DNA of 64,000 nt from an uncultured Chlamydiae bacterium. GTDB taxonomy: Bacteria; Chlamydiota; Chlamydiia; Chlamydiales; JAJFMA01. Made by a program: the position numbers and the translations under genes. Positions 7,123 to 8,361 of this stretch are shown here, piece after piece; the stretch's first letter is position 1, and each line of letters begins with the position of its first letter. The notes under the pieces are model-generated. The model searched no databases and was not told the DNA's origin. It was given only the letters and a program-made list of their open reading frames with translations. The DNA lies in NCBI GenBank assembly GCA_963713615.1, contig CAVQMM010000001.1, positions 1,312,001-1,376,000 on the forward strand. Direction: 5' to 3'.

Positions 7123-8361
7123 TTAGTGCTGGGAATCGATCATTTTTTGCGCGTGATCCACCGCTCGGCTACGTGTGTACCAGCTTCGCGCGCTGTTAAC
7201 AAAGTCCTGGGCGAGATCACGATGTCCCGATGAAATAGCTGCCTGGACGTAAAAGCTGAGATCCTCTCGAGCGATCATGATATTGCCCTGTACAATATTG
7301 TTCAAGCTCGCTGCTACAACAGCGGCTTTTTCTGCCTCGCTAGCAAAAGATATCGCCATCCGATAAAGACTGGCATCCTTGGGATTTTGTGCGATCGCCA
7401 GTGCCGTATTTTTACTGACAGCCTGACGTAACTCTTCCCTTTCCGCAGGTATTCGCCCTCTTTGCCACAACTTCAAACTTAATAATGCCTTACTTTTATG
7501 CGCGAGATAGTGGTCTGGATAATGACAATAGGAGCTGTAAAAAAGAGGAAAAAAATGATCAAACTCTCCCAAATTGGCATAGGCAGCTGCGACAAGAAAA
7601 CCCAATAAATGGTAATTTGGCTCGCGTTGAATCACTGGAGCAAAGTCGCGTCGGATGTCCTTAGCCCCTTTTGCTGCCAGGGGTCCTTGGTTGGCGAGGT
7701 AGACACTCAAGGCATCCGAATACAGCCGCTGTTCTTCCGGTGCTACAGCAGACGACGAGTCTAATGGTGCATGATTCAGGGCCTCAAGGAATATTTCAAA
7801 AGAACTTTCAATCTCCTGATCTTTGCTATAGGCGAGGGCCATCTGAAGCTGAAGGGCGGATTTGTCCACTCCTGATAGTTTGGATAGCCAACGCTGTCCT
7901 AAGGCTATGGCTGCCTTGCAATCCCCCCGCTGCACCAGCTGCGCAACCTGCTGAATCGGCTTTATACCACAATCGGCCTGAAACTTTGATTTGGACCCAC
8001 GCGGAAGCTCCCGCGATTCAACGATCGCAAACGGGTCAATATTAGAAATATGGACCCGTTTGCGATCGTTGAATCCCGGGGCTTCGGCGTGGGTCCAAAT
8101 CAAAGTTTCAGACCGATTGTGGTATAGCTCAGGGGTTTCCTCAGCGGAAAGACAGCAACTAAGTAAGCATAACATAACCACAAAGCTATACCACACTCGG
8201 TCATAAATTTGGAATTTGGACCGCGCCAAAGCCCCGGGATTCAACGATCGCAAATGGGTCAAGATTAGAAATATGGACCCATTTGCGATCGTTGAATCCC
8301 GGGGGCTTTGGCGCGGGCCCAAATCCAAATTTATGACCGAGTGTGGTATAAAATGGCGCAT
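7123..8361 (-). CDS. exported TPR-like helical protein carrying two in-frame 54-codon palindrome insertions
   Basis: helical TPR-like motifs (ALAYSK, AAAYANLGE); deleting the two 162-bp inserts gives MRHFSFVVMLCLLSCCLSA-EETPELKPIQQ. Confidence 0.75.
   Translation of the reverse strand: MRHFIPHSVINLDLGPRQSPRDSTIANGSIFLILTHLRSLNPGALARSKFQIYDRVWYSFVVMLCLLSCCLSAEETPELYHNRSETLIWTHAEAPGFNDRKRVHISNIDPFAIVESRELPRGSKSKFQADCGIKPIQQVAQLVQRGDCKAAIALGQRWLSKLSGVDKSALQLQMALAYSKDQEIESSFEIFLEALNHAPLDSSSAVAPEEQRLYSDALSVYLANQGPLAAKGAKDIRRDFAPVIQREPNYHLLGFLVAAAYANLGEFDHFFPLFYSSYCHYPDHYLAHKSKALLSLKLWQRGRIPAEREELRQAVSKNTALAIAQNPKDASLYRMAISFASEAEKAAVVAASLNNIVQGNIMIAREDLSFYVQAAISSGHRDLAQDFVNSARSWYTRSRAVDHAQKMIDSQH
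7963..8126. mobile_element. TA-flanked palindromic MITE H1 (164 bp including both TA)
   Basis: tataccacaatcgg...ccgattgtggtata; near-complete self-complementarity. Confidence 0.85.
8187..8350. mobile_element. TA-flanked palindromic MITE H2 (164 bp including both TA)
   Basis: tataccacactcggtcataaatttgga...tccaaatttatgaccgagtgtggtata; core gattcaacgatcgcaaa...tttgcgatcgttgaatc shared with H1. Confidence 0.85.

Follow-up and report, generated by a model that had tools for sequence, protein, structure and literature searches.

How can a conserved gene carry two long palindromes next to its start codon and still be read without interruption? The locus that raises this question lies in a 64,000-nucleotide stretch of chlamydial DNA (the window), which is part of contig C1 of the source genome, G000 (3.97 Mb in three contigs), the proteins of which have homologues in chlamydiae. 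The host gene (7123..8361, reverse strand) is single copy and encodes a predicted exported, TPR-like, all-helical protein of 412 aa, as judged from its ORF, homology, a structure model and a fold search. Its reading frame, from 8361 to 7123, is stop-free across all 412 residues, both hairpins included. The start codon (8361-8359) and a Shine-Dalgarno-like AAAGG ahead of it (8374-8370) form a putative initiation region at 8359..8374 on the same strand. The conserved body (residues 134-412; 7123..7962, reverse strand), delimited by alignment and the model, has one match in G000 and matches in 10 of 30 relatives, and in 6 of 6 family members. Downstream, and outside the element, a Ser/Thr kinase-FGE-sulfatase gene (5184..7100, reverse strand) provides a synteny marker, adjoining the host orthologue at 9/9 loci with an intact 5' end; an orthologous locus cut by a contig end (L004) is excluded from the nine.

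As the earlier note had described, each palindrome measures 164 bp from TATA to TATA (TATA starts at 7963, 8123, 8187 and 8347), or a net 162 bp, and the two are stop-free in different phases on either side of the signal core. Repeat, fold and frame analysis places H2 (8187..8350, reverse strand) from base +12 of the ORF, after codon 4 and within the predicted n-region, where it supplies residues 5-58 in frame B1. H1 (7963..8126, reverse strand) begins at +236, about six residues past the predicted cleavage site, and supplies residues 80-133 in frame A2. The segment between them (8127..8186, reverse strand; residues ~59-79) comprises the hydrophobic core, which spans residues 59-73 and peaks at 2.93 on the Kyte-Doolittle scale, a predicted signal peptidase I site, placed by inspection, and the first mature residues, as indicated by hydropathy and the alignment of orthologue N-termini. 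The inserted peptides, 54 aa each, are read in different phase and orientation; shuffled 162-mers of matching composition were stop-free in 7-8% of 20,000 trials.

On the sense strand each element folds into a single stem (H1, -138.8 kcal/mol, z -24.3; H2, -133.7 kcal/mol, z -20.5), with 0 of 200 shuffles as stable in either case. The core of H1 (8001..8089) consists of a paired motif (8001-8015 with 8075-8089) about 40 bp from each end, carrying a fixed C-C mismatch, a one-base bulge and a G-G mismatch, and of an AT-rich centre (8038-8051). In the core of H2 (8225..8312) the H1-type motif has been partly made symmetric, and the AT-rich centre lies at 8262-8275. H1 and H2 are 85% identical. 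Their outer arms match at 97% and 92% within a copy and at 81% between the copies, in keeping with the earlier observation that the arms differ between copies and each copy remains self-complementary. Searched against Rfam, the hairpins reached no family at the gathering score and returned generic microRNA-hairpin matches only.

Aligning the protein with its orthologues, a check proposed in the earlier note, revealed the two expected 54-residue gaps: both pieces are absent from 18/18 aligned homologues and unique to the query in the 19-row alignment. Homologues measure 227-337 aa compared with 412 aa in the host (9/9 syntenic orthologues and 13/13 database homologues, the latter 233-314 aa), and the orthologue N-termini at 9/9 loci are plain and signal-like. 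We rejected an assembly artefact because the two copies differ, both keep the frame, and one contig of the independent DNA run X1 covers 8273-8496, comprising an H2 arm and the gene-start junction, with zero differences. In the structure model, pLDDT exceeds 90 in the body and is mostly below 50 in the inserts, which have no aligned rows, so that low values there are partly expected; a fold search with the body returned generic TPR solenoids only. The best reading is that H1 and H2 are copies of one palindromic repeat of 162 bp that contains no gene, a likely MITE that inserted twice near the start of a conserved gene.

Such insertions might simply have ruined the gene. Recent copies could have silenced or crippled the host through blocked initiation, RNase III cutting or failed export, its frame being open by luck and decay having not yet begun. 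Consistent with this possibility, very stable stems lie beside the start codon, H2 is 96% identical to another G000 copy, and a fresh 164-bp copy is open in 1-3 of its 6 frames, so that a second insertion into a dead gene would fall in frame about one time in three. RNase III cleaves Correia-bearing transcripts (PMC10969869). However, the 279 body codons contain no stop, no frameshift and no rate excess, and the element is tolerated in GlyQS of a relative (G030). All 17 residues invariant among orthologues are kept; the body is 61% identical to its nearest orthologue and 41.7% identical to the outgroup, compared with 41.7% and 40.4% for two congeners. The host is also single copy and present in all six family members, and two RNA runs yielded contigs identical to the body over 7204-7439 and 7460-7634 (zero differences), a match that DNA carry-over could also produce and that is not proof of transcription. 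We therefore regard a crippled gene as unlikely. Gene decay with random frame disruption, which the earlier note had held out as the opposing outcome, is likewise not what we observe, the body being intact and 5/5 in-gene copies of G000 being in frame.

A narrower alternative is that translation restarts after H2, at GTG codon 56 or 61 or at ATG codon 63, which would leave H2 as 5' untranslated RNA and H1 alone translated. In-frame start codons are present at all three positions, many other copies lie directly upstream of a start codon, and PMC3733652 cautions that N-terminal repeats may be misannotated. On the other hand, ATG 63 leaves about 11 residues and no basic n-region, compared with 16-20 in orthologues; GTG 56 is inside the stem; and the Shine-Dalgarno-like site belongs to the upstream ATG. 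Moreover, H2 has a single open frame among six, which is exactly the frame used by the host. A restart is thus very unlikely. Read from the upstream ATG, the n-region of the signal peptide extends over 58 residues, with 7 basic and 3 acidic residues in the H2-extended segment, a net charge of +4 and a mildly hydrophobic stretch within H2 (peak 1.85). Signal function after this 54-residue extension is a prediction from the sequence.

The two hairpins belong to a larger repeat family. The element profile matches 65 places in G000, 17 of which were curated as full length; a degenerate copy at C1:260344 was kept out of this set. Another 24 places are end-only stubs, compared with 0 in shuffled DNA, and 8 of them lie within long ORFs. 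H2 has matches in 8 of 30 relatives, and a core-pattern scan of the genome collection recovered at least 118 stretches. Among the matches listed, 61 of 80 titles are chlamydial, the remaining 19 bearing other or vague labels as given in the records. A plasmid sequence search with the element gave no match. The element contains no transposase gene and has terminal inverted repeats and many copies, as is characteristic of MITEs.

Across 19 aligned copies, the ends, the paired motif about 40 bp inward and the AT-rich centre are conserved, and the arms vary freely yet remain paired. Both sides have changed in 47 of 72 pairs, a number that 0 of 500 shuffles reached. With the core motif as reference, the AT-rich centre occurs in either orientation (5 vs 4 in G000), and the sense-strand arm mismatches of 16 in-gene copies comprise 7 of the G-U type and 30 of the A-C type, many of the latter inherited within G030. 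Paired changes, a centre in both orientations and no excess of G-U together point to conversion between arms in DNA rather than selection on an RNA fold. The earlier suggestion of compensatory change or arm homogenisation was therefore right about the paired changes, which are real and better read as DNA-level homogenisation than as RNA-fold compensation.

The location of the copies follows their stop codons: stop-free frames permit life inside genes. We compared three genomes with respect to this filter. (i) The analysis of G015 covered 31 copies at 28 loci, out of at least 42 places of full length; none of the 31 has any open frame and none spans an ORF. (ii) Of the 15 complete copies in G030, frame A2 is open in 12, and 11 lie within genes, every one of them in A2; a locus cut by a contig end (L063) is excluded from the 15. 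(iii) In G000, where more than one frame of the element is open, 5/5 in-gene copies are 164 bp long compared with 2/12 others (p 0.003), and they occupy frames A0, A2, A2, B0 and B1. All five, at a net 162 bp, keep the host frame, which answers the test of divisibility by three suggested in the earlier note. The difference between G030 and G015 (11/15 vs 0/31 in genes) has a Fisher p of 1e-7, which is overstated since copies are kin, and in-gene copies are recognised partly through being open. Across genomes, in-gene copies use at least five of the six frames.

The hosts in G030 include GlyQS, RecC, MutL, HemN, TatD, NagZ and type III pantothenate kinase, and when GlyQS (glycyl-tRNA synthetase) is aligned with solved structures the insert stands out as a clean gap, query residues 499-552 falling opposite 544-546 of 7lu4. 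Searching with a profile built on the A2 peptide matched 42 database proteins of unrelated families, about 12 of which are the query genomes' own. In the 30 proteins from other sources, many of them short fragments, the peptide is internal in 11, near the N-terminus in 9 and near the C-terminus in 10. The dN/dS of the G030 peptides is 0.53 in the used frame and 0.42-1.64 in the other frames; with 0.42 in an unused frame, there is no sign of selection on the peptide itself. In the type III pantothenate kinase gene (L062:1078-1962), the insert immediately precedes a G-A-N-R stretch, which we take to represent the active-site motif G-A-D-R, and the gene may be impaired.

This filter bears on whether the hairpins are removed or skipped at the RNA level, by cleavage at the stem base and ligation or by ribosome bypass, which would restore the ancestral protein. 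The earlier note had offered this as one of its two readings, and several features would suit it: perfect stems juxtapose both TA ends, several copies are found within 5-12 bases of a start codon or separate the ATG from a possible ribosome-binding site, and the G030 copy noted above in type III pantothenate kinase abuts the conserved G-A-x-R loop. However, an excised hairpin needs neither a stop-free frame nor a length of 3n, and in-gene copies are bound to both, with 0/31 copies within genes in G015 and residence only in the open frame in G030. The arms also lack a G-U bias (7 vs 30 A-C), and the conserved C-C and G-G mismatches are unpaired on either strand. RNA-level removal or bypass is therefore extremely unlikely. 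Weighing against the filter, an excision test flagged 4/17 G000, 1/15 G030 and 3/31 G015 copies that could join a short upstream ATG-led stretch to a downstream ORF and might thus be broken starts. We provisionally judged these 8 copies, out of 63, to be intergenic, mostly since the ATG follows the element; in one G000 case the downstream gene is not convincing. No joints appear in the sparse contigs of runs X1, X2, X3, X7 and X8, which bridge none of the elements.

Position within the gene may matter as well. None of the five in-gene copies of G000 is more than 25 codons from the start, a region that holds 5.6% of coding TA sites, whereas internal sites are common in other genomes; for the DCC1-like host, the insert position is defined by the Pfam domain start. 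Predicted leaders hold three of the five: H2 itself, a copy inserted after codon 2 of an OppA-like lipoprotein, and a copy just ahead of the TLIE motif of a pseudopilin, four orthologues of which lack it. Signal peptidases cleave leaders, so insert peptides carried by a leader would be removed.

Copies also occur immediately outside genes. Three G000 copies end 1-2 bases before an ATG (C1:303357-303519, 690292-690455 and 2352588-2352752), so that any ribosome-binding site upstream is separated from the gene that follows: an integrase/recombinase-like gene in one case, a gene of 2995 codons in another and a further gene in the third. At four G015 loci (L092, L096, L104 and L084), the element end contributes GAGGAG, which resembles a ribosome-binding site, a few bases ahead of the next ATG, and the element gives stop codons to the preceding gene.

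Because copies occur in genes only in stop-free frames and at 3n length, the inserts are most likely translated. We consider it probable that the element is a TA-target MITE mobilised in trans, with translated inserts and with survival depending on frame and on a tolerant position. A trans-acting transposase, using ends of about 35 bp, would duplicate the TA, and selection would then purge gene-breaking copies, leaving survivors that are intergenic or in stop-free frames at tolerant sites. For the host gene, H1 and H2 are likely translated as two 54-residue inserts, predicted by the model to be disordered and tolerated by the protein. H2 would lengthen the n-region of the predicted signal peptide and be removed with the leader by signal peptidase, and H1 would stay as a disordered N-terminal tail of the exported protein. 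Ribosomes that load ahead of the synthesis of the second arm may open the stem, so that mRNA hairpins would be read through, probably at some cost in expression. As a counterpoint, initiation could be blocked by a stem of about -135 kcal/mol that begins 12 bases into the ORF. Gene conversion from arm to arm in DNA would keep the arms complementary, and old copies would erode through deletion into short scars. A precedent for tolerance is a guanylate kinase bearing a Rickettsia palindromic element (RPE), which is translated and active (PMC2229807). On present evidence, the locus is not a case of a new mechanism of gene expression.

Duplication of a TA target is inferred from the frames (net 162 bp) and from tandem copies, which in G015 (L111) overlap by exactly TA. 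The TA duplication proposed earlier is thus plausible from tandem copies and frames; an exact 24-mer of the signal core, used to search for an empty allele, matched 0 metagenome stretches. The associated link to IS630/Tc1 fared worse. The IS630 transposase (PF13358) has no match in G000 or G015 and is present in 3/9 element-positive vs 6/22 other genomes (a small sample). IS630 ends inspected at 15 loci in relatives all differ from the element ends. No IS630 lies beside end matches in 26 metagenome loci or the viral loci, most matches of these end-pattern scans being chance or other short elements. Nor did any transposase recur as a neighbour among 243 loci. IS630/Tc1 mobilisation is thus not supported by co-occurrence or by matching ends; a lost or transient helper is possible. 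With respect to Y1 transposases, the element frames 0 of 26 loci (G000, G001, G003, G012 and G015), G030 (92% complete) has no Y1 match, and the RAYT genes of G000 are framed by their own, other repeats. The element matches near L035 and near L039/L049 represent copies located within or adjacent to genes of IS605/IS200 type; one of them, a shortened copy in G015 (L035:1922-3209), interrupts TnpB in an IS605-type element.

The core itself is shared by elements with TATAC, CTAGTAC and TAAGG end types, and in two metagenome contigs, L260 and L265, TATACCAC ends flank another core. End types and a conserved core offer a concrete handle for finding the mobiliser. We tentatively raise, as a rather doubtful extension, a chlamydiae-wide element with a mismatched-hairpin core and exchangeable ends that here lands preferentially in first codons and has its peptide cut off by signal or prepilin peptidases. 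If true, this would be a parasite rendered harmless by the export machinery and a tractable model for the movement of RPE/ERIC-like repeats.

Known systems of three kinds come closest. RPE-1 to -3 (Ogata et al. 2000, 2002) are 100-170-bp hairpin repeats of an obligate intracellular bacterium that occur both between genes and in frame within conserved genes, including a tRNA synthetase subunit, as summarised in PMC2229807, PMC10969869, PMC3767692 and PMC1779305. Double insertions in one gene are reported for R. conorii uvrB and O. terrae uvrA in PMC3733652. The chlamydial element resembles RPEs in its many dispersed hairpin copies, which are slightly longer (164 bp), in its in-frame presence in unrelated conserved genes whose orthologues lack the inserts, and in two insertions in one gene. 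It differs in phylum, in its net length of 162 bp, in its use of at least 5/6 frames and, in G000, in a strong bias towards N-termini and leader peptides. Compared at the peptide level, 5/5 insert peptides matched no family in NCBIfam (E<=10) or in Pfam (E 0.05). NCBIfam includes RPE models.

TA-flanked MITEs such as ERIC/IRU, Correia/NEMIS and RUP are short, with TA at both termini and long stem-loops; for Correia (107 vs 155 bp) the open-frame form is intragenic and the stop-rich form is not, and for RUP an IS630 partner has been proposed (PMC2229807 and PMC10969869). Like these, the chlamydial element has no coding capacity, ends in TA, sits by start or stop codons and is intragenic when its frame is open. 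Unlike them, it is palindromic over its full length, and an IS630 partner was not found, in contrast to RUP. A blastn search for ERIC similarity against 20,395 E. coli records gave no match at E<=10. REPINs, mobilised with RAYT (Y1) transposases, are long hairpins with conserved mismatches (PMC3733652). The chlamydial element shares this architecture, and G000 has RAYT genes; however, its core is conserved and its ends vary, the reverse of a REPIN, and it frames none of the 26 Y1 loci. It is therefore an element that acts like Rickettsia RPEs and TA-flanked MITEs and matches neither in the peptide-family, plasmid and E. coli sequence searches. No description of chlamydial elements of this kind emerged from the openly accessible literature, a scope that excludes subscription papers. 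The peptide-donating, RPE-like, TA-target element suggested in the earlier note is supported by the orthologue gaps, the copy family and the frame filter in three genomes.

These results extend protein-invading palindromic repeats from Rickettsia to environmental chlamydiae. The element lineages of the three genomes are open in different frames and so constitute a natural experiment in which stop codons alone decide survival within genes; leaders that are cleaved off, and N-terminal tails, would be safe places to land. There is also a warning for annotation: in genes of this kind the start is called wrongly and the signal peptide is missed.

Several further repeats were observed along the way. 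Elements of 83-174 bp at L260, L264, L265, L266, L273, L279 and L280 begin with the first 17-35 bases of the H1/H2 family and have a different core; the one at L265 sits in frame inside a gene. Other repeats have inserted into the core motif of the family at about one point (G000 C1:1224277, 2232881, 177424 and 2164352; L039), and in several half copies the break falls at the AT-rich centre. Eroded copies persist as short, in-frame scars at the start or middle of long genes (G000 C1:1249449, 1295208 and 850863), and the degenerate copy at C1:260344-260494 forms the C-terminal tail of a mutS-like gene. G000 contains 465 long self-palindromes. Within the window, further long palindromic repeat families (8462-8977, 523-1327, 14544-15083, 32146-32769 and others) match repeats flanking Y1/RAYT genes at C1:3243412 and C1:3256780 and look like REPINs, and low-complexity Gly/Pro-type tandem repeats occupy 31230-31668.
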